A stretch of DNA of 40,741 nt from a virus (taxonomy: Duplodnaviria; Heunggongvirae; Uroviricota; Caudoviricetes): positions 1-40,741 of the IMG/VR virus record IMGVR_UViG_2541047784_000010; one strand, 5' to 3'. The position numbers were made by a program, and so were the translations under genes. Position 1 is the stretch's first letter. Every line of letters starts with the position of its first letter. The notes beneath the pieces were generated by a model that was given only the letters and a program-made list of their open reading frames with translations, made no database searches and was not told where the DNA came from. Positions 1,463 to 17,214 of the stretch are shown piece after piece.

Positions 1463-1507
1463 TGTTCCCTCCTGACGCCCAAGAGCGCATTAAGCATAAA
1501 CGGTTCT

Positions 1508-1753: not shown

Positions 1754-1826
1754 TGTTTTCTCCGGTGCTGGAATGAAAGGGGGGGTTAACATGCCTCATT
1801 GGGGTTGAGGCTGTGTGATTCCATGG

Positions 1827-2171
1827 TTAGTCCTTGCGTAGCTCGCTGATTCTTCTGTAAGTCTCTGGTGCTTTGTTACCGTACGTCTTCATTTCAGACT
1901 TCAACAGAGCAACGAGGGAATCCCATTCGTTGAGGATGCCTTTGAATGCCGGAACGCGCTTTGCAACCTTGTCGAATGAATCTCTGATTTCTGGAATCTG
2001 CTCAACAAGTGCAACGCATCGTCGGAAATCGGCTGCGTCATGTGGAGCGCCGAAGTGATGACCATAGATATTCTTTTTCAGTCCACATGCGATTGAGGCA
2101 AGAGTTGCGCTACTGATGCCAACATCGCCAGTTGATTGCCATTTCAAAACCTTCATAGCCAAATCTGACAT
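1827..2171 (-). CDS. Hypothetical phage protein (114 aa)
   Basis: ORF in early-left orientation; no recognisable motif. Confidence 0.5.
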   Translation of the reverse strand: MSDLAMKVLKWQSTGDVGISSATLASIACGLKKNIYGHHFGAPHDAADFRRCVALVEQIPEIRDSFDKVAKRVPAFKGILNEWDSLVALLKSEMKTYGNKAPETYRRISELRKD

Positions 2172-2184
2172 TTCTTGTCTCCAA

Positions 2185-2208
2185 TAAAAAAACCGCCATC
2201 AGGCGGCT
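2185..2208 (-). terminator. Rho-independent terminator candidate
   Basis: On minus strand GCCGCC-tgat-GGCGG stem followed by T7 run; overlaps stop of the 55-aa ORF. Confidence 0.5.
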
Positions 2209-2366
2209 TGGTGTTCTTTCAGTTCTTCAATTCGAATATTGGTTACGTCTGCATGCGCTATCTGCGCCCATATCATCCAGTGGTTATAGCAGTCGTTGAT
2301 GTCCTCTGCTTCGATAACTCTGTTGAATGGTTCTCCATTCCATTCACCTGTGACTCGGAAGTGCAT
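2199..2366 (-). CDS. Short hypothetical protein (55 aa), not in ORF track
   Basis: Hand-translated: MHFRVTGEWNGEPFNRVIEAEDINDCYNHWMIWAQIAHADVTNIRIEELKEHQAA; RBS GGAG 7 nt upstream; same orientation as operon; competes with plus-strand ORF 2175-2381. Confidence 0.4.
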   Translation of the reverse strand: MHFRVTGEWNGEPFNRVIEAEDINDCYNHWMIWAQIAHADVTNIRIEELKEHQAA

Positions 2367-2378
2367 TTATCATCTCCA

Positions 2379-2403
2379 TAAAACAAAACTCGCCGTAGCG
2401 AGT
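2379..2403 (-). terminator. Rho-independent terminator candidate
   Basis: Minus strand ACTCGC-tacg-GCGAGT stem followed by TTTGTTTTAT; downstream of ORF 2455-2736. Confidence 0.45.
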
Positions 2404-2454
2404 TCAGATAAAAGAAATCCCCGCGAGTGCGAGGATAGTTACTTGTTCATATTA

Positions 2455-2736
2455 TTAATCGTCAATGTATTTTGAGCATTGTGGGCAATCATCGATCCCA
2501 CAATACGATTCATATGCATCCTTTATTGCGTCGCGGGCTTCAGTAAGAGTATTGAATAAGTTGCAGCTATTATCTTTTTGATATAGGTAAGTTCCTAATT
2601 TATAAGCAGAAGAAGCATCATTTCCGCTGTCTAAAATCACATCGTTATGGATTCTGCACCTTGCAAGAACTCCTGATCCCATAAGGGTCTGCATAGCCCA
2701 TTGCTCTTGATCTTCACACAAATCATGAATGCTCAT
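2455..2736 (-). CDS. Hypothetical protein (93 aa from MSIHD start), C-terminal CxxC pair
   Basis: ORF with RBS GAGAGGTG 5 nt upstream of internal ATG; AT-rich upstream region suggests own promoter; C-terminal CGIDDCPQC. Confidence 0.5.
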   Translation of the reverse strand: MSIHDLCEDQEQWAMQTLMGSGVLARCRIHNDVILDSGNDASSAYKLGTYLYQKDNSCNLFNTLTEARDAIKDAYESYCGIDDCPQCSKYIDD

Positions 2737-2850
2737 TTCAACACCTCTCTTCACGTTTCACACACGTTAAGATTAACAGTGTTTTTACATGCTTTGGAAG
2801 ATTTATTTTATAAAAACTCTTTTAATACAAATAGATATAATAGTTCACTA

Positions 2851-3405
2851 TTATAGCTCCTTTAATCGAGGCGGTTCTGGTAGAGGCATCCAGTGGGTTA
2901 CATCGCATTCAGGGATGCTGATATCATCACCAAGCCACCCTTGACCTTCAGACCAGCATTGCACGTAATACCTGTATTCTGTGTTCACTACGCACCACTG
3001 CGCGTCGTCCGGCATTCGCTCACTACAGCTTATCCAACCATCCGGAGTTACCGGAGAGTTGCCCGATGGCTCGTTCAACTTGCAAGTTTGGCTTACAGGT
3101 TCGGCTTCCAGTTCTGCTATGCGCTTTTTTGCTGCTTCCAGCTCGCCAAGCAGCGCCAAGACGGTAGCCGGATTGGCTGCGGCGATGAATTCAGCATTGG
3201 CCTGCTGTTCCATTTGGAAATCTTCATCGAAACCGCTTTCTGGATGCGCTCCCTCAATTCTGCAAATGGGAATATATCCAGCAACTTCACGATGAATTAG
3301 CGCATCATCACCATCAAATCGGTCCTCTCCATATTCGAGCGACCACACACCACACGTTGCTTTCTCTGCCTTTTCACGCAGTGCCTGATAGTCAATCTTG
3401 CTCAT
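2851..3405 (-). CDS. Ead/Ea22-like early protein with DUF551-like C-terminal domain
   Basis: 184 aa; coiled-coil middle (LLGELEAAKKRIAELEAE) and Trp/Cys-rich C-terminal region typical of lambdoid Ea22-family proteins; position between xis and recombination genes. Confidence 0.55.
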   Translation of the reverse strand: MSKIDYQALREKAEKATCGVWSLEYGEDRFDGDDALIHREVAGYIPICRIEGAHPESGFDEDFQMEQQANAEFIAAANPATVLALLGELEAAKKRIAELEAEPVSQTCKLNEPSGNSPVTPDGWISCSERMPDDAQWCVVNTEYRYYVQCWSEGQGWLGDDISIPECDVTHWMPLPEPPRLKEL

Positions 3406-3406
3406 G

Positions 3407-3706
3407 TCACATCACCCTGAATCCATTGCATTTACGTAAAAAATCGCAGATATAGCCCTTCATTTTTTCATGCCAATCTCGATCATTCCCATTGCACCAA
3501 CCATCAGGTGGAGTCCAGTTTTCTATCAGAGCAGCAATTTTCTTTGCTTTCGCCGGAGTAGCTGTTGCGGTATCGCAGTAATGACGAGTGTCAACAAACT
3601 TATCCATACCATCGATATCAAGTACGCAAAACCATGTGTGATTCGGCATTTCAACAGATGGTATTTGTTGCCCACGTCGACGTTTATCAATAAGACATAC
3701 AGTCAC
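3407..3706 (-). CDS. Hypothetical protein (99 aa, GTG start)
   Basis: ORF preceded by AAAGGAGG RBS 6 nt upstream of GTG. Confidence 0.5.
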
Positions 3707-3870
3707 TGGTTGCCTCCTTTGCGCAACATCGCATTCAGATATTTTTTGTCATTAACAGAACCGAAACTATTTCTCTTAAGCAATTCCTCTCTCGATGGCA
3801 TTGGCTTTACGCGTTGGCGAATAATCATTTCTGCCGGAAGAATGCCGGGATTGTATGCAAGTCCTCTCAT
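3703..3870 (-). CDS. Short hypothetical protein (55 aa), not in ORF track
   Basis: Hand-translated [55 protein letters not shown]; ATGA overlap with upstream gene stop and GTGA overlap with downstream gene start (translational coupling). Confidence 0.4.
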
Positions 3871-4148
3871 GATTTACTCTCCACGAACTGGTCAATAGCC
3901 ATGCTAAGTGACATACCTAAAGTTTCGATATGTTGCTGAATATCCTGTAGCGTCTGCGCCTGAGATAACAGGATTTCACGGTTGCATAACTCTTTAACCA
4001 GATGCTCAAACTTGCTGTAATAACCGATACGGCTTAGTGTTTCTTTCCCTGCATTCTCGCCTTCTTTGATAATTCCTCTTTCATTAAGAATCAGGTCGTG
4101 TTTTGTTCCAGTAATAACGTATTTTCCGAGGTCGATGTTCAGCTTCAT
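3867..4148 (-). CDS. Hypothetical protein (93 aa)
   Basis: ORF in operon orientation; no motif recognised. Confidence 0.5.
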
Positions 4149-4164
4149 TGTTAATTACTCCATG

Positions 4165-4479
4165 TTAATTTATTCGTATGCCTGCTCTTTCTTCATCGAG
4201 TTTTTTTAGCTTGTATCGCATAGCTCTTACTGAATAAATTGAGCGGCAGGTTGCAATTGCTATTTCTTCTGCGGAGAACTTACCGAAAAGTGATACTTCG
4301 GCTCTTGTCCAGCGTCTTCCACGAAGTCGGCTAACAATGTCAGCTCCAATCCTTGTTGCTTTCGCCATTACTGCTTTTTCAGTCCTTTCCAGTTTTTCAG
4401 CGATAACTTCAACTGGCATTGTCGCAGCCACTTCGCGCAAGAAATCGACTTCCCATTTCTCCCATGGAGTCTTTTTCAT
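4165..4479 (-). CDS. Hypothetical protein (104 aa), basic
   Basis: ORF in operon orientation. Confidence 0.5.
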   Translation of the reverse strand: MKKTPWEKWEVDFLREVAATMPVEVIAEKLERTEKAVMAKATRIGADIVSRLRGRRWTRAEVSLFGKFSAEEIAIATCRSIYSVRAMRYKLKKLDEERAGIRIN

Positions 4480-4490
4480 AGTCGATACCG

Positions 4491-4979
4491 TTATTTGATA
4501 AGAAGTGAAGGTTTCCCAACTTTGAGTTGAGCGCCGGGGATATTTATTCCTGCTTTTAGTTGGTGTTTGATTGCCAGTTTGTCGGCTTTAATTGTCGTTT
4601 CGAACTCAACGTATTCAGGAGGAAGGGCGCTTGAGTCGATGATTTCTACAATTTCTGACGGTTTGCGGATTGTTACCTGGTGAATGCCTGCTCGAATATT
4701 TTTCTTGCCAACCATTTCAAGCGATGACGCTATATATGATTTGATGCTCTCAATCTTATTTTGAATTACTGCGGCTCGCTCATTCAGTGACTTTGCCTCT
4801 TCCTTGAGGCGTTCGGCATAACCAGATTCATTTTTAATGACGGAAAGAAGTTGCTCTATTTTATCGGTAAATTCTCCTTCCATGCCTTCTATTGTGTCAG
4901 CAATCATCTCTGGCTCTAAATCTGAATCCATCAATTTTGCGTATTCATTGGCTATTTCATATAGTTTGCTCACTGGCAA
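4491..4979 (-). CDS. Siphovirus Gp157-like protein
   Basis: 162 aa acidic/coiled-coil protein immediately downstream of recT, the usual partner position of Gp157-family proteins. Confidence 0.5.
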   Translation of the reverse strand: MPVSKLYEIANEYAKLMDSDLEPEMIADTIEGMEGEFTDKIEQLLSVIKNESGYAERLKEEAKSLNERAAVIQNKIESIKSYIASSLEMVGKKNIRAGIHQVTIRKPSEIVEIIDSSALPPEYVEFETTIKADKLAIKHQLKAGINIPGAQLKVGKPSLLIK

Positions 4980-5868
4980 CCTCCAGTTTCGCTTTGCATT
5001 CTATGTAAATGGCTTGTATGTTCTGCTGCAATTTCATTCCAGATGTCAGGCGATATGCTTCTGCAAAATATCTCTTCAAATCATCCATGTTTTCAGCCTG
5101 AGCCATTTCATCACAAAGAAGTTGTGCTTTATCCGTTATTTCCTGCTGGCGTTTCCGTTCATCTTCGCGGATATCTTCCTCTGATTTGTGCGGCATAACT
5201 GGTTCAGTCCATACACCTTCTTCTTCGTTTAGTACGTGAATAGCACTATCAAGACGTGATGCCTTAGGCCAATACTTGCTTGCACGCTTTACGACCGTCT
5301 TTCGCGCCATCTCATTCCAGTGATTTACCCATGGTCCTTTATCGCTGAATGCCGCCTTGCTTGTTTTCCTTACAGCCTCAATTTCAGCCAGACTCATCTC
5401 TTCCGTTAGATAATCACCTGCTGGCGTCTTAACTGTGCAGTAAACGCCAACGATATCACCACGATCACCGAAGGCGTTGTATTTATGGGTTGGTGCTTTA
5501 TCAAGTCCGTTTGACTCATAAGTATCGTTAGCATGAACAAGCTTTGCCTGACCCCATGAGATAACACCAGACTCCATTGCAATATGTAGCAATCCCATAT
5601 AGCTGATATCAAGGCAAACCATGCCGTCGCGCGGAACCAGATAAGCCAGTTTGCTAGCCGGGTTTAAGGTGATACCGATCGCCGCAACATTGATGATGGC
5701 GTTCTGTGCGCTGGTTGGATTTGCCAGTGCTGTTTTAGCCAGGTAATCATTTTTCTGGAAATACTGAATTGCAAACTGGCTTTCCTTAGCCCATGTCACC
5801 GTCTGTTCAGTCAATGCCCCGCAGAATAACTGCTCCTGCTGTTTAACGAATTCAACGATATTGCTCAT
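4957..5868 (-). CDS. recT: RecT-family single-strand annealing recombinase
   Basis: 303 aa; sequence pattern typical of RecT/Red-beta family; position in early-left recombination module. Confidence 0.8.
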   Translation of the reverse strand: MSNIVEFVKQQEQLFCGALTEQTVTWAKESQFAIQYFQKNDYLAKTALANPTSAQNAIINVAAIGITLNPASKLAYLVPRDGMVCLDISYMGLLHIAMESGVISWGQAKLVHANDTYESNGLDKAPTHKYNAFGDRGDIVGVYCTVKTPAGDYLTEEMSLAEIEAVRKTSKAAFSDKGPWVNHWNEMARKTVVKRASKYWPKASRLDSAIHVLNEEEGVWTEPVMPHKSEEDIREDERKRQQEITDKAQLLCDEMAQAENMDDLKRYFAEAYRLTSGMKLQQNIQAIYIECKAKLEVASEQTI

Positions 5869-6176
5869 GCTGCTTCTCCATAAATGTGTCTGCGTTTGAA
5901 TATTGCGAAGGCATATTCAGCCTTAACTCTTTCGGTTATTGCATCCCAGAACCATTCAGCGGCTTTTTCCTGATAGTTACAGTCATCATCTTCCAGCCAG
6001 TCGATAGCGTCCTTAGTGTGTTCATCTGGTTTATATGAGCGAAGCATTTCGCTTATTGGGTCGCAACGTTTGCAGAGGCGATCAACTTCACTGTTGATTC
6101 GTTCGTAATCTTCATCAGTAAAACTTGCGATTATTTGCGATATTTCACGCTTATCATTCAGAGTCAGAATCATCAT
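5865..6176 (-). CDS. Hypothetical protein (103 aa), acidic
   Basis: ORF overlapping recT start by 4 nt. Confidence 0.5.
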   Translation of the reverse strand: MMILTLNDKREISQIIASFTDEDYERINSEVDRLCKRCDPISEMLRSYKPDEHTKDAIDWLEDDDCNYQEKAAEWFWDAITERVKAEYAFAIFKRRHIYGEAA

Positions 6177-6261
6177 CTTTCTCCTGTTCTTTGTGCTGAT
6201 TGAGCATTTTGTTCATCTGACGAATGAATTCTTCGTCTGACCAGTTATCTGTAAAACTCAT
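6154..6261 (-). CDS. Short acidic ORF (35 aa), not in ORF track
   Basis: Hand-translated MSFTDNWSDEEFIRQMNKMLNQHKEQEKDDDSDSE; ATGA overlap with cIII stop and overlaps start of downstream gene. Confidence 0.3.
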   Translation of the reverse strand: MSFTDNWSDEEFIRQMNKMLNQHKEQEKDDDSDSE

Positions 6262-6428
6262 GGACGGCCTTGTTGTTTCAAAATATCCCAAAGCTTTTCG
6301 AGCAAGCTTTTCATTCTTGGTTGTTTAAAGTCTGCTCCGGTTAAAATGTTTTTTCGTGAATGCTGTACCGATAAAATCGGGTTGAAAGGGCGAACCGATG
6401 CCGCCCCTGCAATAGCGAACTGTTGCAT
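6258..6428 (-). CDS. cIII: CIII-like protease (FtsH) inhibitor
   Basis: 56 aa from MQQFAIAG; resembles lambda CIII (MQYAIAG...LLERITRKLRDGWKRLIDILNQPGVP vs here ...LLEKLWDILKQQGRP); RBS AAGGAG. Confidence 0.75.
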   Translation of the reverse strand: MQQFAIAGAASVRPFNPILSVQHSRKNILTGADFKQPRMKSLLEKLWDILKQQGRP

Positions 6429-6492
6429 AGGATGCTCCTTCTGTTTGATTGCATAACGAAAACGCCTCGAGTGAAGCGTTATTGGTATGCAT

Positions 6493-6518
6493 ATAAAAAA
6501 GCCCTCACATTGGAGGGC
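6493..6518 (-). terminator. Rho-independent terminator
   Basis: Minus strand GCCCTC-caatgt-GAGGGC stem followed by TTTTTTAT; between AT-rich ORF 6623-6820 and cIII. Confidence 0.6.
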
Positions 6519-6622
6519 AAAGAAGATTTCCAATAATCAGAACAAGTCGGCTCCTGTTTAGTTACGAGCGACATTGCTCCGTGTATTCACTCGTTGGAAT
6601 GAATACACAGTGCTTCTCTGTG

Positions 6623-6820
6623 CTAAATAATTAAATCATATTCTGATTTGGTTAGTTTATAAGTACCTCCTCTGGTGTAATATGCAAATCTGTCTTTGCT
6701 TCCATCAGAATTGTATACCCATCCACCAAATGGAAAGATAGTGTCTATTTCTCCAATATCTTTTTCACAACTAAATGTCTTTCCATTTTTAGTTGAATAT
6801 GACTTACCAACTGTCAACAT
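6623..6820 (-). CDS. Hypothetical AT-rich cargo protein (65 aa)
   Basis: ORF with markedly lower GC than neighbours; occupies the lambda ea10 position between ral-like gene and cIII; followed by its own terminator. Confidence 0.5.
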   Translation of the reverse strand: MLTVGKSYSTKNGKTFSCEKDIGEIDTIFPFGGWVYNSDGSKDRFAYYTRGGTYKLTKSEYDLII

Positions 6821-6859
6821 CTTCGCCTCTGCTGTTTATGCCAAAAATAAAGGCCACCA

Positions 6860-7060
6860 TCAGGCAGCCTTGTTTTTCTGTTTACCAAGTTCTCTGGCAA
6901 TCATTGCCGTCGTTCGTATTGCCCATTTATCGACATATTTCCCATCTTCCATTACAGGAAACATTTCTTCAGGCTTAACCATGCATTCCGATTGCAGCTT
7001 GCATCCATTGCATCGCTTGAATTGTCCACACCATTGATTTTTATCAATAGTCGTAGTCAT
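6860..7060 (-). CDS. ral: Ral-like restriction alleviation protein
   Basis: 66 aa, starts MTTTIDKNQWCGQFKRCNGCK; matches my recollection of lambda Ral in length, sequence and position between N and cIII. Confidence 0.65.
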   Translation of the reverse strand: MTTTIDKNQWCGQFKRCNGCKLQSECMVKPEEMFPVMEDGKYVDKWAIRTTAMIARELGKQKNKAA

Positions 7061-7130
7061 ACGGATAGTCCTGGTATTGTTCCATCACATCCTGCGGATG
7101 CTCTTCGAACTCTTCAAATTCTTCTTCCAT
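7044..7130 (-). CDS. Tiny acidic ORF (28 aa), not in ORF track
   Basis: Hand-translated MEEEFEEFEEHPQDVMEQYQDYPYDYDY; GAGGTG RBS 4 nt upstream; overlaps ral start by 17 nt. Confidence 0.25.
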   Translation of the reverse strand: MEEEFEEFEEHPQDVMEQYQDYPYDYDY

Positions 7131-7263
7131 ATATCACCTCAAATAAGTGGTTTGCTGCCTAATTTCATTTTCTGGCGACCAACACAAGTCACACCCATTT
7201 CACTGCGTGGCTTGCGGTAGTAAATACGGTTATTTATGTCATTAAAAACCAGCGTGAGCGTGG

Positions 7264-7530
7264 TTATTTTTTCTTTCCAAGAGATGGAAGACCTCCAGAA
7301 TAATCTGGACCACTTGAACGATGCATTTGATACAATATTGCGTTTTTGTTGGCGTTTAGTGGCTTTGTTGCGAAAGAAATTTTTTCTCGTTTTACATCTC
7401 TTATCATCATCAACTCACGTTCTGATGCTTTTGGATGATAATCATTGATATGCTTCCATGCTGCCTTGGCGCTGAATTTTCTTCCACATAAAGGGCAATA
7501 GCATTTATATGATACTTGTTTGCTAGTCAT
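7264..7530 (-). CDS. Hypothetical protein with C2H2-like zinc-finger motif (88 aa)
   Basis: Motif CPLCGRKFSAKAAWKHINDYH (C-x2-C-x11-H-x4-H); directly downstream of N, in the position lambda uses for sieB. Confidence 0.5.
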   Translation of the reverse strand: MTSKQVSYKCYCPLCGRKFSAKAAWKHINDYHPKASERELMMIRDVKREKISFATKPLNANKNAILYQMHRSSGPDYSGGLPSLGKKK

Positions 7531-7532
7531 TT

Positions 7533-7841
7533 CTATCTCGCCGTAATTGATTTCATTGACCTGTAACCAGCAGCATACAGTGCAACTTCAGGCAAACAAA
7601 CGCTTCCGCCATTCGCATCTGTATTTGATTTACTGATGATGCCGAGTGATATTGCTTTTTCAGAAAGACTTAAACGCTTTCTCGGTTCTTCCTGAACAGC
7701 TTCCTCACTGTCTGTGCCGAAGATCGAATCGATGATGTTGCAGATGGAATCACGCTCGATAGCCAGCTTTCTGCGCCGCTCATGACGGCGAGTTTTGGCA
7801 TTTCCTGCAAATGTTGATTTTCCGTACACGATTACCGTCAT
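7533..7841 (-). CDS. N: N-type transcription antiterminator (P22 gene 24-like)
   Basis: Start trimmed to MTVIVYGKSTFAGNAKTRRHERRRKLAIER; arginine-rich boxB-binding motif; close match to my recollection of P22 gp24; downstream of PL and nutL. Confidence 0.85.
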   Translation of the reverse strand: MTVIVYGKSTFAGNAKTRRHERRRKLAIERDSICNIIDSIFGTDSEEAVQEEPRKRLSLSEKAISLGIISKSNTDANGGSVCLPEVALYAAGYRSMKSITAR

Positions 7842-7960
7842 GATGTTTTCCTCATGTGAAATGGCTTTGGTGGTGATGCGCCAGGTGCTGATCTTCTGGT
7901 TGCTGTCGTTGCAGCTGCAACTCACATCACCGCCAAACCCATCTCGTTTGGTATCTGTTT

Positions 7961-7996
7961 GCGCTTTGTCAGCGCCCCATCGAAGTTAAAGAGCCT
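7961..7996 (-). promoter_or_regulatory. nutL (boxA + boxB)
   Basis: On minus strand boxB GCGCTGACAAAGCGC (P22-type hairpin) preceded by boxA-like GGCTCTTTAAC; located between PL and N. Confidence 0.75.
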
Positions 7997-8040
7997 GCCA
8001 ATCTGTTCCGTTTGGCTTCCAGCTTCCTGCTGATGGCTAA

Positions 8041-8114
8041 ATAGTACGATGTGTACTTTATTGAGTCAATACAAAATGTTCTAAATGCGGTTAGTTTTTT
8101 ATAACACTTTGTAT
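8041..8114 (-). promoter_or_regulatory. PL promoter with OL operator sites (putative)
   Basis: Minus strand TTGACT-N17-TACTAT; three copies of motif ACA-N3-(T/C)GT-A(T/C) shared with OR region, one in the promoter spacer. Confidence 0.55.
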
Positions 8115-8132
8115 TTTATTGATTTATATTTT

Positions 8133-8163
8133 GGAAAAAGAAAACCCGACGATAAGGTCGGGT
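8133..8163 (-). terminator. Rho-independent terminator downstream of cI
   Basis: Minus strand ACCCGAC-cttatc-GTCGGGT stem followed by TTTTCTTTTTCC; lies between cI stop and PL (no rex genes present). Confidence 0.6.
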
Positions 8164-8194
8164 TATTGTTGTGTGTTTTAGAGTGGTGAGGCTG

Positions 8195-8854
8195 TTAACT
8201 AAATGTCTCTTCAGGCCACTGGCTGGCGATAACTTTCCCTACTACGGAACAGCTATCATTGCATGGGATCATTGGATATTGCGGGTTTAGTGGTTGTAGG
8301 AACACCTGACCGCTATCCCTGATCAGTTTCTTGAAGGTAAACTCGTCACCACCAAGTCTGGCTATGCAGAAATCACCTGGCTCAACAGCCTGCTCAGGGT
8401 CAACGAGAATTAACATCCCGTCAGGAAAGCTTGGCTTGGATCCTGTTGGTGCGGTCATGGAATTACCTTCAACTTCAAGCCAAAACGCACAATCACTGGC
8501 TTTTTTGGTTGTGCTGACCCATCTCTCCGCATCACCTTTGGTAAAGGTTCTAAGCTCAGGCGAGAACATCCCGGCCTGAACATGAGAAAAAACAGGGTAC
8601 TCATATTGTTTTTTAACGGGGGCAGATGAGTATTCGCCAACAGGTGAAAATGTACCGTCGTGGTTGAATGAGACGTTATCAATACCAAGGTATTTAAACA
8701 CCACACCAATCTCGTCAAGAGATGGATGACGAGATCCGCGCAACCAGTGACCAATTCCACCCTGCGTCATACCAAGCTCTTCAGCTAACTTCTCTTGAGT
8801 TATGCCGAGTTCTTTCATTCTGGATCTAGCCAGTTCATACCATTTCATTTTCAT
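8195..8854 (-). CDS. cI: CI-type immunity repressor (LexA-like S24 peptidase C-terminal domain)
   Basis: C-terminal ~130 aa match my recollection of lambda CI nearly residue for residue ([19 protein letters not shown]...[13 protein letters not shown]...[27 protein letters not shown]), including Ala-Gly cleavage site and Ser/Lys dyad; N-terminal HTH is unrelated to lambda; start set at MKMKWYEL with AAGGAT RBS. Confidence 0.9.
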
Positions 8855-8966
8855 ATCCTTATTATTACGCTCTGTACTAAAACCATCCATGCACAAGATG
8901 TATTTTTTTGTTTGCATTCCAAAAGTACATATCGTATTATTGTTTCATGGTTACTATGGAGGGCAT
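8855..8966. promoter_or_regulatory. OR region: divergent PR/PRM with operator sites (putative)
   Basis: PR TTGCAT-N17-TATTAT on plus strand ~25 nt before cro RBS; operator-like motifs ACAAGATGTAT and ACATATCGTAT (latter in PR spacer) shared with OL. Confidence 0.6.
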
Positions 8967-9182
8967 ATGAGCAACCTACGAAAATATCGAGAGTCACTGA
9001 ATATCTCTCAAACAACACTTGCTAAGGCGGTTGGATGCACACAGGGAGCTATCGGACATTGGGAATCTGGTCGTCGCTTCCCAGACCTTAAAACATGCCG
9101 TGCTCTTGTTGCGTGCCTAAACAAGTTAGGCGCAAAAGTCAGTCTTGATGACGTGTTCCCACCGGAACACAAAGCCGCTTAA
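8967..9182 (+). CDS. cro: Cro-type repressor
   Basis: 71 aa from MSNLRKYRESLNISQTTLAKAVGCTQGAIGHW; HTH recognition region nearly identical to that of the cI N-terminus (TQGGIGHW), as expected for shared operators; RBS GGAGGG. Confidence 0.8.
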   Translation: MSNLRKYRESLNISQTTLAKAVGCTQGAIGHWESGRRFPDLKTCRALVACLNKLGAKVSLDDVFPPEHKAA

Positions 9183-9193
9183 TAAGCGGATCC

Positions 9194-9228
9194 GCTCTTT
9201 ATCAATCTGCACCGCCGACAACGCGGTA
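9194..9228 (+). promoter_or_regulatory. nutR (boxA + boxB)
   Basis: boxA CGCTCTTTATCA followed by hairpin ACCGC-cgacaac-GCGGT, just downstream of cro. Confidence 0.7.
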
Positions 9229-9235
9229 ACTAATT

Positions 9236-9275
9236 AATCACTCATCGAAAGATGAGTATTAGTGATTATTTACCT
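9236..9275 (+). terminator. tR1-like terminator candidate
   Basis: Nested inverted repeats AATCACT / CTCATC-gaaa-GATGAG / AGTGATT followed by T-rich stretch between nutR and cII. Confidence 0.3.
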
Positions 9276-9291
9276 ATGGAAATAGTAAGAA

Positions 9292-9588
9292 ATGGAACAA
9301 ACAAGTTACAGCAAACTATCACAGCGCGACGTTGATCGCGCAGAAACAGATTTACTCATCAACCTGTCAACGCTTACCCAGCGCGGTCTGGCAAAGATGA
9401 TTGGCTGTCATGAATCGAAGATCAGTCGTACCGACTGGCGGTTTATTGCTTCGGTCTTGTGTGCTTTCGGAATGGCATCAGACATCAGTCCGATTAGCAG
9501 GGCTTTTAAGTATGCGCTTGATGGACTCACCAATAAAAAACGCCCGGCGGCAACCGAGCGTTCTGATCAAATACAAATGGAATTTTAA
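9292..9588 (+). CDS. cII: CII transcriptional activator
   Basis: 98 aa; C-terminus LTNKKRPAATERSDQIQMEF is essentially lambda CII (ILTNKKRPAATERSEQIQMEF); HTH region KISR conserved. Confidence 0.85.
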   Translation: MEQTSYSKLSQRDVDRAETDLLINLSTLTQRGLAKMIGCHESKISRTDWRFIASVLCAFGMASDISPISRAFKYALDGLTNKKRPAATERSDQIQMEF

Positions 9589-9610
9589 CAACATCCAACG
9601 AGGTAATTAT

Positions 9611-9883
9611 ATGCGAAACAAAGGCTTTAATCCACCTGATACACACAAAGAAGCTAAGCGTTTGCGCTTCCTTCGTTCCATTGATGAAAGAACTCAAATC
9701 TCTTTTGTGAAAGTTGCCAGAACTGAGCTTCTGAAGGCTGAGGCGAGGGCGTTGCTCCCGTCTCTACCAAAAGAGGAGGGATATACGTTCATTCCAAACG
9801 CATTTCTGGAAAAGCTTCTCAAAGAAGACATATCCGTAAGTCAGTTTAACGATGTTCTTAAGGTCTTTCGTCAAGGCAGGTAG
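9611..9883 (+). CDS. Hypothetical protein (90 aa) between cII and replication genes
   Basis: In-frame ATG at 9611 within longer track ORF 9401-9883 that overlaps cII; RBS GAGG upstream. Confidence 0.45.
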   Translation: MRNKGFNPPDTHKEAKRLRFLRSIDERTQISFVKVARTELLKAEARALLPSLPKEEGYTFIPNAFLEKLLKEDISVSQFNDVLKVFRQGR

Positions 9884-9885
9884 TT

Positions 9886-10833
9886 ATGAGCAATACAGCA
9901 AAAATCTACGATTTCAGCGCCGCACACGAGCGCAGGAGCAACAGGATGGAGAACCAGAAAACTGGTTACATTCCGTTGTACCGGAGCATTCTGAAACAGT
10001 CATGGGCGAAAGATGTTTATCTTCGCACCCTGTGGGAAAACCTTCTCCTGAATGCTGCCAGAAAGCCATACAAAGCGAATTTCAAAGGTCATGAATGGCA
10101 TCTGCAACCCGGTCAACTGGTTGTGACAGCAGCTGATTTAGGTCTTCAGTTATGCGACAGGCATGGCAAGCCGGCAAGCCGTGATCAGGTTGAGCGGATG
10201 CTTCAGGTTTTTGTGAAAGAGGGGATGATCTCCATTGATGGAGAGAAGCAAAAAGGTCGTGTGATCACCATCACAAATTACCATGAATATGCTCAAAAAA
10301 TGGACGATTCACCCGCACATGAAGCCGCACAAACAACCGCACATGAAGCCGCACATGATGAAGCCAGTAATGGCGCGGCTTTCAGCGTACATGCCACACA
10401 TGAAAGCGCACATGAAGCCGCACAAACAACCGCACATCATGAACAAGAAGGTATTAACAAGAATATAAATAATACCCCCCTACCCCCCAATGGGGGAGGC
10501 GATGGGCAGGTTAAACCTGAACGTCGCAAGGCAGAACGAATCGACTACGAATCCTTCCTGAACGCCTACAACACCGAAGTCGGTGACAGACTGCCACACG
10601 CTGTTGCGGTCAACGAGAAACGAAAACGCCGCCTGAAGAAAATCATCCCGCAACTGAAAACGCCAAACGTTGACGGTTTCAGAGCGTATGTCAGGGCGTT
10701 TGTGCATCAGGCTAAGCCGTTTTACTTCGGAGACAACGACACGGGCTGGACGGCCGATTTTGATTACCTGCTGAGGGAAGACTCGTTAACGGGAGTTCGG
10801 GAAGGGAAGTTTGCAGACAGGGGGATTGCATGA
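9886..10833 (+). CDS. O: Replication initiator, lambda O / P22 gene 18-like
   Basis: 315 aa; position after cII; central His/Ala-rich repeats encoded by DNA iterons (ori inside gene, as in lambda O); basic C-terminal part. Confidence 0.75.
10310..10500 (+). repeat. Origin of replication: iterons plus AT-rich segment inside O gene
   Basis: Three or more copies of CGCACATGAAGCCGCACA within 140 bp, followed by AT-rich AAGAAGGTATTAACAAGAATATAAATAATA and C6/G5 tract. Confidence 0.7.
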
Positions 10834-12206
10834 GACAGGATATCGAAGCGAGCGTTATCGGTGGCCTGCTGATTGGTGGATTAACTCCAACCGCCAGCGA
10901 CGTTCTGGCAACGCTGGAGCCGGAAGCGTTTTCAATTCCGCTCTACCGGAAAGCCTTCGAGGTTATCCGCAAGCAGGCGCGAAACAGAAACCTAATCGAC
11001 GCACTGATGGTTGCCGAGGCGTGCGGAGAGGAGCATTTCACGTCAATCCTGATGACCAGCAAAAACTGCCCGAGTGCCGCAAACCTGAAGGGATATGCCG
11101 GAATGGTCGCGGATAACTATCACCGCCGTCTGGTGCTGGAAATCATGGATGAAATGCGTGAACCAATTCAGAGCGGAACCATCGACGCATCGAGTCAGGC
11201 GATGGATGAACTTGTAAAACGTCTCTCAGCCATCAGAAAGCCCCGTGACGAGGTAAAACCTGTACGGTTAGGGGAAATCATTACTGACTACACTGACACG
11301 CTTGACAGGCGTCTGAGGAACGGAGAAGAGTCAGATACCCTGAAGACCGGAATCGAAGAACTTGATGCCATCACCGGAGGGATGAACGCGGAAGACCTGG
11401 TGATTATCGCTGCTCGTCCTGGTATGGGGAAAACCGAGCTGGCGCTGAAGATTGCCGAAGGCGTTGCAAGCCGCGTTATTCCTGGTTCTGACGTCCGGCG
11501 CGGGGTATTGATTTTCTCAATGGAAATGAGCGCATTGCAGATTGCAGAGCGAAGCATTGCCAACGCCGGGAGAATGTCGGTTAGCGTGCTGCGAAATCCT
11601 GCATCGATGGATGACGAGGGCTGGGCACGTGTTGCTAACGGCATGAGTCAGCTTGCGGATTTGGATGTATGGGTAGTCGATGCCTCGCGGTTATCGGTCG
11701 AAGAAATACGCTCAATCGCAGAACGGCACAAACAGGAAAATCCAAACCTGTCACTCATCATGGCGGATTATCTTGGCCTGATTGAGAAGCCGAAAGCAGA
11801 TCGCAACGACCTCGCAATTGCTCACATCTCCGGAAGCCTTAAGGCGATGGCGAAAGACCTGAAAACGCCTGTTATCTCCCTGAGTCAGCTTTCACGCGAT
11901 GTTGAGAAGCGACCAAACAAACGCCCGACAAACGCAGATTTGCGTGATTCAGGAAGCATTGAGCAGGACGCAGACTCAATCATCATGCTCTATCGGGAAG
12001 CGGTATATGACGAGAACAGTAGCGCCGCGCCATTTGCTGAAATCATTGTGACGAAAAACCGTTTTGGCTCGCTTGGTACGGTTTACCAGCGGTTCTGTAA
12101 CGGACACTTTGTTGCATGTGACCAGGATGAAGCCAGACAGATTTGCACAGCATCAAATGCACCTGCTGCGCGTGGCAGACGATATGCACAAGGGGCGGAC
12201 GTATGA
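10830..12206 (+). CDS. DnaB-family replicative helicase (P22 gene 12-like)
   Basis: 458 aa; Walker A ARPGMGKT, DnaB C-terminal motifs; ATGA overlap with O-like gene. Confidence 0.9.
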
Positions 12207-12284
12207 CCATCTACATCACTGAGCTAATAGCATGGTTATCGTTACTAATGGTTCTTACTGTATATATTATTAAGTATATTCTTT

Positions 12285-12896
12285 ATGCGAATAAAAAAAC
12301 TAATTGATCACGATGAGCTTCTGTCAACATTATCATATGACTCAGAAACAGGAATATTTAAATGGCTAAAAACAAATTCAGTAGTAAGAGTAAAAGGTAG
12401 TATTGCTGGAGGTGTTAGTGGTGGTTATATATGCATTAGCATAAATAATGTTTTGTATTATGCGCATAGACTTGCTTGGTTCTATGTATACAAAAAATGG
12501 CCTCCTAAGTTTATTGATCATGTAAATGGGAACAGACTTGACAATAGGATTTCAAATCTAAGACTGGCAACAGAAGAGCAGAATGCAAGAAACATTGTAG
12601 GGAATAGATTAAACACATCCGGTGCAATTGGAGTGTCTTGGTATAAGCCAACTGGCAGGTGGAAGTCTTATGTTGGTTATAAAAATAAGACAATATCGTT
12701 AGGGTATTTCGATAGCAAAGAAGATGCAGCATTCATAGCAGCACTAGCAAGAAAGAAACTATATGGAACTTATGCGAGTAAAGCACTTAATTGCGAGCAT
12801 GAGCTTTTATCTCAATTTAATAATGATGAGGATAAACTTGCGGAATATCTTAAGGAAAAATCTAAAAGGACTCGAAAGCGTGTTAAAAACAGATAA
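12285..12896 (+). CDS. HNH endonuclease with AP2-type DNA-binding domain (homing-endonuclease-like)
   Basis: 203 aa; HNH_3-like motif AHRLAW...FIDHVNGNRLDNRISNLRLATEEQN and AP2-like GVSWYKPTGRWKSYV; low GC; own terminator. Confidence 0.8.
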   Translation: MRIKKLIDHDELLSTLSYDSETGIFKWLKTNSVVRVKGSIAGGVSGGYICISINNVLYYAHRLAWFYVYKKWPPKFIDHVNGNRLDNRISNLRLATEEQNARNIVGNRLNTSGAIGVSWYKPTGRWKSYVGYKNKTISLGYFDSKEDAAFIAALARKKLYGTYASKALNCEHELLSQFNNDEDKLAEYLKEKSKRTRKRVKNR

Positions 12897-12928
12897 AGGC
12901 CTGCTGGTAATCGCAGGCCTTTTTATTT
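12897..12928 (+). terminator. Rho-independent terminator
   Basis: AGGCCTGC-tggtaatc-GCAGGCCT followed by TTTTATTT directly after HNH gene stop. Confidence 0.85.
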
Positions 12929-12943
12929 GGGGGAGAGGGAAGT

Positions 12944-13270
12944 GTGGCTGACTGGCAAATTCCAATCATCATTCTTGCCGGAGCTTCGCTGGTTGCTGGC
13001 TTTATCCTTCTGAAAAAGCATAAAGACCGTGATCAAAAAGTCGAAGTTCTCTATGGGTATCCAGCGAACAGCACAACATGGCTGACCATTTACCACTACC
13101 GAAAATCAGGCCGCTGGGTATTCGAATGGGATGATCTGTTCGCTGAAAAGCGACCAAAGTCATGGGGAGACATCAGCGAATGCGTGATGTTTGAAGAAAG
13201 AAAATCCGGCGCAACCCGAGAAGAGTTTAACGAAGCGTGGGCGCGATTAAGTGAGAGAGGGTATTTGTGA
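12944..13270 (+). CDS. Hypothetical protein with N-terminal transmembrane helix (108 aa, GTG start)
   Basis: Hydrophobic N-terminus IPIIILAGASLVAGFILL; RBS GGGAGAGGG. Confidence 0.45.
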   Translation: MADWQIPIIILAGASLVAGFILLKKHKDRDQKVEVLYGYPANSTTWLTIYHYRKSGRWVFEWDDLFAEKRPKSWGDISECVMFEERKSGATREEFNEAWARLSERGYL

Positions 13271-13467
13271 GCAAGTACGAAAAATTAGATCAAAACATTC
13301 TTTCAATGCTGAGTGAAAGACCAACACCTGTTTTTGATATCTGGCTTAAATGGCGGAGCAATGGAATGTATATCGAAACCATCGATCGCCGTATGCAATA
13401 CCTGAGAAAGAAAGGGCTTGTTGCAAATGTGCGTGGGAAGGGTTGGGTGAAAATTAACCTGTCATAA
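13267..13467 (+). CDS. Hypothetical protein (66 aa, GTG start)
   Basis: Small basic ORF overlapping neighbours in operon fashion. Confidence 0.4.
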   Translation: MSKYEKLDQNILSMLSERPTPVFDIWLKWRSNGMYIETIDRRMQYLRKKGLVANVRGKGWVKINLS

Positions 13468-13478
13468 CGGGGATTGAT

Positions 13479-13793
13479 ATGGACGAATCAAGAAAGAAGT
13501 TTGAGGAATACGTTGCCAAAAAATTGAGATTACCATTCGAGATGATAACCGAGGCAAGAAATGGTGATAGGTACTTCGCATTTTCAAGCATGGATATTCG
13601 TCACTCCTTAAATGAGTGGTGGGCTTTATGGCAGGCATCGCGAGCAGCTATTGAAATAACCGCGCCAAAGTTTATCGACAGCAGAGAAGCATTAGCCAAA
13701 GGGTTTACTGTTGATTATTCCAATGGCTTCGGTGATGCAATGGATGCTTATGAGGAAAACATCCGCTCTGCTGGAGTCAAAGTGAAGGAGTAA
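13479..13793 (+). CDS. Hypothetical nin-region protein (104 aa)
   Basis: ORF with ATG and upstream purine-rich RBS; no motif recognised. Confidence 0.5.
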   Translation: MDESRKKFEEYVAKKLRLPFEMITEARNGDRYFAFSSMDIRHSLNEWWALWQASRAAIEITAPKFIDSREALAKGFTVDYSNGFGDAMDAYEENIRSAGVKVKE

Positions 13794-13795
13794 CG

Positions 13796-14206
13796 ATGAA
13801 GCAAACAATCTTCCTCCGAACTAAGCAACAACAGCAAGCTGCAATAAATGCCATCCTCGCAACACCACTCGATAAAGACAAGCCAGTCACCATCCGCATT
13901 ACTGACTACAAGCGAAATCTTGACCAGAACGCAAAATTTCACGCGATGCTGGCGGATATCGCTCGTCAGGTTCAATGGTGCGATAAGTGGTTAAAACCAG
14001 AACAATGGAAGGTTTTGTTGATTAGCGGTCATGCAGTGGCAACAAAGCAGGAAGCTGATGTTTTGCCCGGGCTTGAAGGCGAATACGTCAACATTCGCGA
14101 AAGCAGCGCGCAGATGAGCGTGAAGCGTATGGCAAGTCTGATCGAGTACACAACAGCATGGGCTATTGGTCAGGGAGTCAGATTTACCGACAGGAGGTAC
14201 GAATGA
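13796..14206 (+). CDS. ninB: NinB recombination protein
   Basis: 136 aa; conserved core [30 protein letters not shown] resembles lambda NinB. Confidence 0.85.
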
Positions 14207-14379
14207 GACGACAGCGACGAAGTTTCACCGACATCATCTGCGAAAACTGCAAATACCTTCCAACGAAACGCACCAGAAATAAACCCAAGCCAATCCCAAA
14301 AGAATCTGACGTAAAAACTTTCAATTACACGGCTCATCTGTGGGATATCCGGTGGCTAAGACATCGTGCGAGGAAATGA
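14203..14379 (+). CDS. ninE: NinE-like protein (start trimmed to MRRQRRSF)
   Basis: 58 aa nearly identical to my recollection of lambda NinE ([23 protein letters not shown]...). Confidence 0.75.
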
Positions 14380-14783
14380 CAATGCTTTTAATTCAACCTG
14401 GATTTGGCCTTAGCATCAAAAAAGGGCACATGTTTGGCGAGAAAGAGTCACAACGAAAAATGGTGTCTATCCGGTTGCCATTTATCAGTATTTATTGGCT
14501 AAACAGGGAGGCAACAAATTATTGGTATACATGTGCCAGAGCAGCATTTAACGACCCTGACTGGTTTGTGAAAAACCACCACGCAGTTCGTCAGGCAAAG
14601 AGAAAGGCCAATACGACATACATGAAGGCGTATCGAAAAGCATGGAAAGAACACCGCGATCGATACCAGCAAGACATGGAAAAGCTTGAATCAGAAAACA
14701 TGGAATTAAGACGAAAGCTTGGTGAAGCAAAACGAGACATTGATGCTTACAAGCGACTTTTTAATGGTGAAAGCCATGCTTAG
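14376..14783 (+). CDS. Hypothetical nin-region protein (about 135 aa; start uncertain)
   Basis: Track ORF 14340-14783; internal ATG at 14376 follows GAGGA; C-terminal coiled-coil-like. Confidence 0.4.
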
Positions 14784-14952
14784 TCCATCCCAATCTCTTC
14801 AATACCAGAAAGAAAGCGTCGAGCGAGCTTTAACGTGCGCTAACTGCGGTCAGAAGCTGCATGTGCTGGAAGTTCACGTGTGTTCCGATTGCTGCGCAGA
14901 ACTGATGAGCGATCCGAATAGCTCAATGTACGAGGAAGAAGACGATGAGTGA
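14776..14952 (+). CDS. ninF: NinF-like protein (start trimmed to MLSPSQSL)
   Basis: 58 aa with CxxC...CxxCC pattern matching lambda NinF. Confidence 0.8.
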   Translation: MLSPSQSLQYQKESVERALTCANCGQKLHVLEVHVCSDCCAELMSDPNSSMYEEEDDE

Positions 14953-17206: not shown

Positions 17207-17214
17207 AGATGTAA

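Follow-up and report, generated by a model that had tools for sequence, protein, structure and literature searches.

Among described lambdoid immunity regions, the closest to the one analysed here are those of the Shiga-toxin (Stx) phage VT2-Sakai (Sp5), the Stx1-converting phage of GenBank record AP005153, Stx2-phi-II (AP005154), Nil2, 2851 and the PA-series PST1 phages, which we call the Sakai type. Six operators of this type are annotated in AP005153, and Yin et al. 2015 tabulate them as 'same as operator sequences in E. coli O157:H7 Sakai', crediting Fattah et al. 2000 (Table S5, PMC4587872). That the repressor is a mosaic has also been recorded. The VT2-Sakai annotation describes 'cI similar to CI of lambda' and 'cro similar to C2 of bacteriophage L', and the epsilon34 genome paper stated that a lambda-type C-terminal domain sits on an N-terminal domain of the phage L/VT2-Sa type (PMC2629481).

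The window, by which we mean the whole stretch of 40,741 nucleotides that was analysed, carries at 8041-8966 a full lambdoid immunity region, in which PL/OL, a terminator, the minus-strand cI gene, PRM/OR/PR and cro follow one another (Table 1). Together with N on the left and cro-cII on the right, this region very probably forms the switch for primary immunity (immC) in a P22-like prophage of E. coli, with the specificity of the VT2-Sakai/Sp5 type. The window contains the integrase-to-tailspike gene set of a complete P22-like phage, its immI region is intact, and cI, cro, cII and N are intact open reading frames. The sequence NZ_OZ040490.1 is 99.9% identical to the window over positions 114-19002 only, the late region being mosaic, and its annotation was applied to the early region only.

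In the helix-turn-helix (HTH) of CI, in Cro and in the predicted OL/OR operator set, the module agrees with the Sakai type. Cro is 100% identical (71 of 71 residues) to that of all the Sakai-type phages named above. CI is 97% identical to the Sakai-type CI over 216 aa, with an identical HTH, and its N-terminal domain matches that of AP005153 at 78 of 81 positions (96%), the three differences all lying outside the HTH. The six 17-bp operators have the same order and spacing in both, and the PL/PR/PRM layout is the same. The content of the switch, comprising a repressor, a Cro and six predicted DNA sites, is that of an immunity type already described for VT2-Sakai. A preliminary description of this DNA had annotated a mosaic CI, a cognate Cro, an OL and OR with common repeats, and a terminator after cI without rexAB, all of which we confirm, OL and OR each proving tripartite. 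It had also proposed that the immunity type and its operator motif were novel. This part fails, because the CI, Cro and operator set is that of VT2-Sakai (Sp5), Stx1-phi, Stx2-phi-II and Nil2, with the operators already annotated in AP005153 and tabulated by Yin et al. 2015; with an N-terminal domain of a described type, the annotation stands and the novelty is gone. Since the VT2-Sakai type was described before and hundreds of E. coli genomes carry the module (768 of 5426 complete genomes), we take the reading to be correct and not new: the switch is of a published and very common type, and has little weight as a discovery.

The surroundings of the module do differ. The interval from OL to cI contains roughly 1.4 kb of additional ORFs (orf22/b63 and others) in the Stx phages, whereas in the window it contains none and the terminator is followed by OL. 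The adjoining N gene is HK97-like in AP005153 but P22-like in the window, and the module is here carried by a P22-like podovirus, not by an Stx phage.

Table 1. Features of the immunity region and its flanks in the window; the last column gives the counterpart annotated as an operator in AP005153 ('putative operator' for OL1)
Feature	Position	Strand	Description	AP005153 counterpart
N antiterminator gene	7533..7841	-	First gene of the PL operon; Pfam N_peptide, E=6.5e-37	
nutL	7961..7994	-	boxA GCTCTTTA (7994..7987), boxB GCGCTGACAAAGCGC (7975..7961); exact pattern positions	
PL (predicted)	8041..8069	-	-35 TTGACT (8069..8064), 17-bp spacer, -10 TACTAT (8046..8041); consensus scan, 9/12	
OL1 (predicted)	8042..8058	.	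TAGTACGATGTGTACTT; overlaps the PL spacer and -10, centre about -16; leave-one-out rank 1; weight-matrix score 17.8, highest in the window	TAGTACGATATGTACTT
OL2 (predicted)	8067..8083	.	CAATACAAAATGTTCTA; overlaps PL -35, centre about -41; leave-one-out rank 1	CAATACAATTTGTTCTA
OL3 (predicted)	8100..8116	.	TATAACACTTTGTATTT; leave-one-out rank 1	TACAACGCTTTGTATTT
Intrinsic terminator of the cI transcript (predicted)	8133..8172	-	Stem 8143-8164, then TTTTCTTTTT (T-run)	
cI repressor gene	8195..8854	-	219 aa from ATG 8854, or 217 aa from ATG 8848	
Lambda-like cI segment	8201..8605	-	Part of the linker, cleavage site and S24 C-terminal domain; blastn	
PRM (predicted)	8862..8890	-	-35 ATGGAT (8890..8885), -10 TAATAA (8867..8862); inferred from sequence	
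OR3 (predicted)	8863..8879	.	TATTACGCTCTGTACTA; overlaps PRM core; leave-one-out rank 1	TATTACGCTCTGTACTG
OR2 (predicted)	8889..8905	.	ATGCACAAGATGTATTT; abuts PRM -35; weakest match, leave-one-out rank 7 of 40,725	ATGCACAATGTGTATTT
PR (predicted)	8912..8940	+	-35 TTGCAT (8912-8917), 17-bp spacer, -10 TATTAT (8935-8940); consensus scan	
OR1 (predicted)	8923..8939	.	AAGTACATATCGTATTA; in PR spacer and -10; leave-one-out rank 1	AAGTACATATTGTATTT
cro	8967..9182	+	71 aa, HTH_3 (Pfam, E=4e-12), recognition helix TQGAIGHWESG	
nutR	9193..9227	+	boxA CGCTCTTTA (9193-9201), boxB ACCGCCGACAACGCGGT (9211-9227); pattern positions	
cII	9292..9588	+	Pfam Phage_CII, E=2.4e-34	

Repressor mosaicism and the shared recognition helix

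The start codon of cI is uncertain among ATG 8854, ATG 8848 and the database-annotated position 8890, which RefSeq uses to give a 231-aa form and which probably lies inside OR2. CI contains an HTH_3 domain (Pfam, E=8.3e-11, residues 11-58) and a Peptidase_S24 domain (E=8.9e-29). The motifs VQAGMF (with its Ala-Gly), GNSMTAP and FTFKKL align residue for residue with lambda CI, and from established knowledge of lambda CI we take the first to be the cleavage site and the other two to be the motifs of the Ser/Lys dyad. With an HTH, an S24 peptidase domain with its dyad and a linker Ala-Gly, CI has the predicted domain content of a LexA/CI-type autocleaving repressor.

The C-terminal cleavage/oligomerisation domain is, as the preliminary description held, almost identical to that of lambda CI: residues 84-219 match lambda residues 102-237 at 133 of 136 positions (98%), and the DNA at 8201-8605 is 94.3% identical to lambda 37233-37637 over 405 bp (blastn). 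At 8605, DNA identity with lambda steps sharply from about 60% to 94%, similarity being abruptly lost 5′ of this point, and at the level of DNA comparison this step shows a recent exchange with lambda at the linker. The N-terminal domain lacks the N-terminal arm of lambda CI and is only 21-25% identical to the lambda domain (17 of 81 residues). Its HTH had been called unrelated to that of lambda, which goes too far, as both are HTH_3 domains in Pfam and the N-terminal domain weakly matches that of the lambda repressor in the PDB (1LLI, E=7e-4).

A recognition motif common to CI and Cro had also been pointed out. The helix reads TQGGIGHW in CI and TQGAIGHW in Cro, where it lies in the segment GCTQGAIGHWESG, and BLASTP of the CI N-terminal domain against Cro gives E=6e-13, in agreement with that observation. 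The closest solved structure to Cro is 28tn_A (E=4.5e-17). Comparison with lambda Cro yields a short local alignment only (20 residues, score 35), and the HTH_3-type Cro of the window is unrelated to it in sequence.

Operators, promoters and the empty cargo slot

The repeat ACA-N3-YGT-AY, initially proposed as common to OL and OR, has eight matches in 40.7 kb, five of which fall within 8044-8114 and 8893-8937. We resolved this short motif to 17-bp pseudo-palindromes with the half-site (T/A)A(G/A)TAC(A/G) and a 3-bp spacer, which extends the repeats to six predicted operators, three in OL and three in OR. When each site was left out in turn from a weight-matrix scan of 40,725 positions, five of the six ranked first and the sixth ranked 7th, and at zero to one mismatch the 17-bp consensus occurs, within the window, in OL and OR only. 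One predicted operator overlaps the spacer and -10 of PL and another those of PR, consistent with the earlier placement of one repeat copy in each promoter spacer. Lambda-type operators (consensus TATCACCGC...) have no match within three mismatches in 8000-9000, and lambda's own immunity region has no high-scoring match to the operator matrix of the window. Full-text literature searches with the operator strings returned irrelevant matches only. For the Sakai type, no footprint or in vivo immunity test was found in the searchable literature, the scope of which ends short of Fattah 2000, Sato 2003 and Serra-Moreno 2008, so that the operators are assigned from sequence statistics, from their conservation and from predictions in the literature.

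Lambda and the window are alike in having a tripartite OL and OR of 17-bp operators, in the position of OL1 and OL2 at about -16 and -41 from PL, and in that of OR2, which is centred at -43 from the cI ATG here and at -42 in lambda. On the other hand, lambda carries rexAB and its own operators, and its OR1-OR2 spacing is 24 bp. As this spacing is 34 bp in the window, lambda-style pairwise cooperativity is an assumption. In its DNA-binding domain, its Cro and its predicted operators alike, the module falls outside imm-lambda.

The hexamers of PRM are poor, and the equivalent promoter in AP005153 is annotated as 'putative maintenance promoter for CI'. The cI transcript probably starts at or adjoining ATG 8854, which would make the mRNA leaderless or near-leaderless. 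For PR, the consensus scan returned TTTGCA with an 18-bp spacer.

As previously proposed, cI is directly followed by a putative terminator: a terminator scan returned a hairpin (dG -12.4 kcal/mol, z = -3.65) which, on the strand of cI, leads into a T-run. Window positions 8137-8172 are 86% identical to lambda 35799-35834, one stem pair having changed from G-C to A-T in a compensatory manner, and by this comparison the terminator is homologous to the sequence that directly follows rexB in lambda. The 78 bp from the cI stop (8195) to OL3 (8116) contain no ORFs, so the absence of rexAB or other cargo likewise holds. The interval from cI to OL may be regarded as a cargo slot, which is empty in the window but contains orf22 in Sp5 and rexAB in lambda.

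Relatives of the module and rival readings

The same arrangement of a terminator without cargo is found in the Escherichia phages Dewey, Louie, vB_EcoP-683R2 and vB_EcoP-720R6, whose OL-cI-OR-cro block (window 8022-9182) is 97.5-97.9% identical to that of the window. Dewey, which has been sequenced and is on record from the inflow of a sewage plant, has a CI 100% identical to that of the window, and in phi458 both the N-terminal domain and Cro are 100% identical. Inside the block, these five phages differ from the window by single nucleotides only, whereas N, cII and replication, the modules next to it, are mosaic. The Sakai-type cassette moves between Stx phages and P22-like podoviruses as an exchangeable OL-cI-OR-cro block (approximately 8022-9182).

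Salmonella phages L and ST64T have near-identical recognition helices: in L Cro the helix reads TQGAIGHY, and in the L repressor TQGAIGHWLNG, with 2 of 11 positions different from the window's. The operators of phage L follow the same consensus as those of the window and score as high as the window's own sites, and the spacings are equal (26 and 34 bp in OR, 25 and 30 bp in OL). The N-terminal part of the L repressor is 48% identical in an alignment and about 54% identical over residues 3-65 (tblastn), and L Cro is 69% identical. [quoted passage not shown]

The repressor of epsilon34 and g341c has the architecture seen in the window, with a lambda-family C-terminal domain (79% identical) on an L/VT2-Sa-family N-terminal domain (51%), and the operator proposed for it, WTACRAWWTGTAT, shares a TACR-N3-TGTA core with the window's. 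Its recognition helix, TKGAVSHWLNG, is unlike that of the window, so its specificity probably differs, and two cargo genes follow the repressor gene. We also considered the Stx2a phage of the O104:H4 strain BAA2326, whose lambda-like CI is 61% identical to lambda CI and was for this reason suspected to be the same protein. Its non-lambda operators, mapped by EMSA and DNase I (ATAACTGTGCGTAATG and others), and its gene context, with no recognisable OL or N beside cI, rule this out; its DNA-binding domain is lambda-like, and it belongs to another immunity type.

The Sakai-type assignment would be wrong in function if a few differences in the operators and the N-terminal domain made the module heteroimmune to Sp5-type phages, in which case its motif would be novel after all. 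The cI-cro DNA is about 93% identical to the Stx-phage copies (megablast; 88% over a longer blastn span), three residues of the N-terminal domain differ, and 10 of the 102 operator positions differ from AP005153. However, these ten are confined to the 3-bp spacers (5 of 18 positions) and to the degenerate half-site positions 1, 3 and 7, with none at positions 2, 4, 5 and 6 (0 of 48), as compared with 19 of 111 positions between the operators. In addition, the HTH segment and Cro are identical to those of the Sakai type, and the exact CI variant already exists in phage Dewey and as RefSeq WP_014532159.1, with dozens of genomes at 99% or more. We thus find a new specificity extremely improbable. 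The conservation of the operator core positions also speaks against the idea that the region is an inactive remnant of a decaying prophage, in which genes and sites are recognisable but the switch is dead. Nothing direct speaks for this idea; defects are common among prophages, and in AP000363, the related VT2-Sakai record, a stop codon interrupts the recognition helix of cI. In the window, however, all of cI, cro, cII and N are intact, the sequenced phage Dewey has the identical CI, the P22-like gene content is complete and immI is intact, and we judge a dead switch to be very improbable.

A third reading concerns the history of the module, not its function. An L/Sakai-type N-terminal domain on a lambda-family C-terminal domain could be ancestral in the clade of epsilon34, g341c and the Sakai type, and if lambda and the Sakai type recently swapped only the C-terminal segment, lambda would be as much a chimera as the cI of the window. 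In line with such an old or reversed graft, the g341c C1 protein is homologous to the window CI over its full length, with DNA identity of about 69% along the gene in addition to the domain identities given above; the epsilon34 paper gives the same architecture (PMC2629481); and in phage L the same N-terminal family sits on the P22-type C-terminal domain. The step at 8605, on the other hand, shows no more than a recent exchange at the linker, and gives no direction. We consider this history quite possible, without leaning towards it.

Predicted working and consequences

If the region is the Sakai-type immC switch that we take it to be, CI would be a LexA-like S24 autocleaving repressor that acts as a dimer on six 17-bp operators. 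OL1 and OL2 would cover the -10 and -35 of PL, and OR1 the spacer and -10 of PR, so that their occupancy would turn both early operons off. From OR2, about -43 from the cI ATG, CI would activate the weak PRM (lambda CI acts in this way from -42), and at high CI levels OR3, over the PRM core, would mediate auto-repression. The cI transcript, probably leaderless or near-leaderless, would end at the rexB-type hairpin with no cargo gene in between. Cro, having nearly the same recognition helix, would compete for the CI sites in lytic growth, and once DNA is damaged, RecA would stimulate CI to cleave itself at the conserved Ala-Gly of its lambda-like C-terminal half, which would free the DNA-binding domain. 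In this scheme, we infer cooperativity, the order in which the sites are occupied, the activation of PRM, the point where the transcript starts and the cleavage stimulated by RecA.

The arginine-rich motif of N, GNAKTRRHERRRKLAIER, is presumably of the P22 gp24 type, in agreement with the P22-type boxB sequences. We take the nutL boxB to be identical to P22 boxB-left, and nutR to be of the P22 type as well. A CII site of PRE (TTGC-N6-TTGT, minus strand 9314..9301) likely lies inside the start of cII; sites of the type TTGCN6TTGC/T are quoted for epsilon34, P22 and lambda (PMC2629481).

The practical value of the module lies in annotation. Two further consequences of the mosaic are conceivable, although we regard them as unlikely. 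The first is partial homoimmunity across genera between the Sakai-type phages of E. coli and the L-type phages of Salmonella, as recognition helices, operator consensus and spacing are common to the window and phages L/ST64T. The second concerns the dimerisation and oligomerisation domain, which is 98% identical to that of lambda CI: in polylysogens, CI could form mixed dimers or oligomers with lambda-type repressors or with others that have a lambda C-terminal domain, and the switches of prophages in the same host, Stx phages included, would then be coupled or weakened. Since the immunity type is shared with Sakai-type Stx2a phages, the harmless prophage could make its host immune to them, which, if so, could matter for the spread of Stx phages.

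A published immunity type in a P22/HK620-like prophage

Judged by its ORFs and Pfam matches, 7500-9600 is a standard lambdoid early control region, in what is overall a P22/HK620-like prophage. From left to right it carries N, a leftward promoter, three repeats, a hairpin, cI, three further repeats with divergent promoters, cro and cII. The preliminary description had considered the immunity type and its operator motif novel. On its own terms this claim falls, since the N-terminal domain of CI belongs to a described immunity type: domain and operators are those of the published type of phage VT2-Sakai (Sp5), here called the Sakai type. The observation itself is confirmed and the annotation correct; the region represents a further copy of an already known and very common immunity cassette.

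The stretch 7900-9300 matches 201 phage records, and at least 80% of 8000-9200 is present in 768 of 5426 complete E. coli genomes. Cro is 100% identical in VT2-Sakai, the Stx1-converting phage AP005153, Stx2-phi-II, Nil2, 2851, the WGPS phages and the PA-series PST1 phages, and in these same phages the N-terminal domain of CI is 96% identical, with an identical helix-turn-helix (HTH). Over its full length CI shows 100% identity to the CI of Escherichia phage Dewey, and the block from OL to cro is 97.5-97.9% identical in the Escherichia phages Dewey, Louie, vB_EcoP-683R2 and vB_EcoP-720R6; the RefSeq proteins are WP_014532159.1 and WP_000067727.1. In the AP005153 record, exactly the six 17-bp sites described below are labelled putative operators, and PR and the maintenance promoter are marked as well. 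The six sequences also appear in Yin et al. 2015, where they are given as 'same as operator sequences in E. coli O157:H7 Sakai' with reference to Fattah et al. 2000. The 1999 VT2-Sakai record reads 'cI similar to CI repressor of bacteriophage lambda' and 'cro similar to C2 of bacteriophage L'. For phage epsilon34, a repressor with a C-terminal domain ~80% identical to lambda's and an N-terminal part with ~50% identity to 'phages L, VT2-Sa and Ni12' has been described, and WTACRAWWTGTAT was proposed as its operator (PMC2629481). The searchable literature, outside which older key papers lie, yielded neither footprints nor immunity experiments on this type. The one footprinted lambda-like Stx repressor, that of phage BAA2326, has another N-terminal domain and other operators.

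The E. coli chromosome NZ_OZ040490.1 is 99.9% identical to 114-19002, a stretch annotated there from integrase to the Q antiterminator and lysis genes; the late region is mosaic. Because bases 1-113 have no match in the fliE-adjacent junction of that chromosome while the integrase gene does match, the prophage may lie in another flank or strain background. The early-right operon contains two inserted HNH endonuclease genes, both free-standing, one after the helicase gene and one after Q by the annotation of NZ_OZ040490.1; in Dewey an HNH gene also adjoins cII.

Features of the immunity region and associated modules (window positions)
Feature	Position	Strand	Remarks
Integrase gene	158-1462		
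N-type antiterminator gene	7841..7533	-	Pfam N_peptide, E=6.5e-37
nutL region	7961-7994	-	boxB GCGCTGACAAAGCGC
PL (predicted promoter)	8069..8041	-	TTGACT-17-TACTAT
OL1 (putative operator)	8042-8058		over PL -10 and spacer
OL2 (putative operator)	8067-8083		over PL -35
OL3 (putative operator)	8100-8116		upstream of PL
Terminator hairpin	8143-8164		-12.4 kcal/mol, z = -3.65; followed by TTTTCTTTTT on the cI strand
cI repressor gene	stop 8195, ATG 8854 or 8848	-	HTH_3 and Peptidase_S24 (Pfam)
OR3 (putative operator)	8863-8879		over PRM core
OR2 (putative operator)	8889-8905		abuts PRM -35
PR (predicted promoter)	8912-8940	+	TTGCAT-17-TATTAT
OR1 (putative operator)	8923-8939		in PR spacer and -10
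cro	8967-9182	+	71 aa, HTH_3 (Pfam)
nutR region	9193-9227	+	boxB ACCGCCGACAACGCGGT
Inverted repeat	9236-9267		AATCACTCATCGAAAGATGAGTATTAGTGATT
cII	9292-9588	+	Phage_CII (Pfam)
PRE (likely, predicted)	9314..9301	-	TTGC-N6-TTGT
HNH endonuclease gene	12285-12896		
HNH endonuclease gene	16694-17206		
Mnt-like Arc-family gene	34916-35167	-	
Arc-like gene	35273-35413	+	
sar antisense RNA	35608-35675	-	Rfam RF00262, 85.7 bits
Antirepressor gene	35677-36600	+	intact, 307 aa

Operators, promoters and their layout

The repeats ACA-N3-YGT-AY noted earlier are present, eight in the window and five of these within the two short OL and OR stretches, and, as described, one copy lies in each promoter spacer (OL1 and OR1). 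Extended, they form six 17-bp pseudo-palindromes whose half-sites, (T/A)A(G/A)TAC(A/G), flank a 3-bp spacer. Scored by leave-one-out weight matrices over all 40,725 positions, five sites come first and OR2 seventh, and the 17-bp consensus with up to one mismatch has no match elsewhere in the window. The core ACR-N3-YGT alone has 41 matches window-wide, which is the chance frequency; the operator signal is the full half-sites and their clustering, not the bare core. Lambda-type operators were not found in the immunity region. Compared with the 93%-identical Stx1-converting phage, half-site positions 2, 4, 5 and 6 show no differences (0/48), degenerate positions 1, 3 and 7 differ in 5/36 cases, the operator spacers in 5/18 and the sequence between operators in 19/111, as would be expected of protein-contacted sites.

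With the PRM start approximated by the cI ATG at 8854, the predicted PRM -10 TAATAA (8867..8862) ends 7 nt upstream, and OR2 and OR3 are centred at -43 and -17, against -42 and -19 in lambda. OL1 and OL2 lie at ~-16 and ~-41 from PL. The centre spacings are 34 bp (OR1-OR2), 26 bp (OR2-OR3) and 25 bp (OL1-OL2), the first being lambda's 24 bp plus one helical turn. Because the layout thus maps closely onto lambda's, we infer a lambda-like logic, with cooperativity, the order of site occupancy, activation of PRM and the start of the transcript all presumed. CI dimers would repress PL and PR and, at OR2, activate a weak PRM, with OR3 mediating auto-repression; Cro would act at the same sites, and RecA-stimulated cleavage of CI at Ala-Gly would induce the prophage. 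A pattern search placed a likely PRE on the minus strand inside the start of cII, since the motif there fits the type of CII site quoted for lambda, P22 and epsilon34 (PMC2629481).

The repressor and its relatives

The C-terminal domain is near-identical to lambda's, as had been claimed: CI residues 84-219 match lambda CI 102-237 at 133 of 136 positions, and 8201-8605 is 94.3% identical to lambda 37233-37637. Upstream (5') of 8605 identity drops to 16-21 per 30 nt, placing the junction in the linker, just ahead of the Ala-Gly cleavage site; by alignment this site and the Ser and Lys motifs are conserved. Ahead of the junction the identity to lambda CI is 21-25%, and lambda's N-terminal arm is missing, but calling the two HTH domains unrelated was too strong: both are HTH_3, and that of the window weakly matches the lambda repressor N-terminal domain in the PDB (E=7e-4). 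Databases start this CI at ATG 8890, inside OR2, which makes it 231 aa long (WP_014532159.1, Dewey and AP005153, ATG 8888-8890). We prefer 8854 or 8848 as the probable start, because homologues align from MKW/MKMKW and 8890 falls upstream of the predicted PRM.

CI and Cro do share the motif TQG-IGHW (TQGGIGHW in CI, GCTQGAIGHWESG in Cro), and there is clear homology between their HTH domains (BLASTP E=6e-13). Because the shared stretch aligns with GQSGVGALFNG, the recognition helix of lambda CI, homology suggests the same role here. In the VT2-Sakai record AP000363.1, a stop at ~2585-2587 of the locus replaces the Gln of TQGGIGHW (GMT*GGIGHW), which is why the record gives its cI only 169 aa; the remaining Sakai-type records are intact at this point, and the stop could be either a genuine mutation or an error of sequencing.

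Before and after the junction, respectively, the window's CI is 21% and 98% identical to lambda's, 96% and 97% to that of AP005153, 51% and 79% to that of Salmonella phage g341c, 48% and 44% to that of Salmonella phage L and 21% and 45% to that of P22; between L and P22, the C-terminal domains share 70% identity. By these values the L/Sakai N-terminal family occurs on two C-terminal families, and the lambda C-terminal family carries several N-terminal domains. The direction of exchange with lambda cannot be told from these sequences. Since the g341c repressor is homologous over its full length and uniformly diverged, the clade may have long had this architecture, with only the C-terminal segment recently shared with lambda. 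Phage L itself has three sites each in OL (1083-1154 of L006, its sequence) and OR (1891-1967), which score as high as the window's own under the window-derived matrix and have the same spacing (26 and 34 bp in OR); its repressor helix reads TQGAIGHWLNG. We found no published statement of phage L operators in the literature searched. Homoimmunity with phage L across genera, and the formation of mixed oligomers with repressors of lambda type, are speculative ideas.

Terminator and neighbouring modules

A terminator directly follows cI, as previously described, and the 78 bp between the cI stop and the nearest repeat leave no room for a rexAB-like gene or other cargo. The stretch 8137-8172 is 86% identical to lambda 35799-35834, immediately downstream of rexB, and a G-C pair of the lambda stem is A-T here, a compensatory change. 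The terminator is homologous to this lambda sequence, and the arrangement is thus the cI-rexA-rexB-terminator of lambda without its cargo. [quoted passage not shown]

N (motif GNAKTRRHERRRKLAIER) and the nut sites are presumably P22-type, so that a P22-type antitermination module would flank the Sakai-type cassette; in AP005153 the same cassette adjoins an HK97-like N. The inverted repeat between nutR and cII has no clear T-run; in both g341c and epsilon34 this position is labelled 'putative tR'. An entire secondary immunity region of P22 type (immI) lies at 34916-36600 and, its antirepressor gene being intact, probably provides a second, antirepressor-based route to CI inactivation. In the otherwise similar prophage of NZ_OZ040490.1, the ant gene is split.
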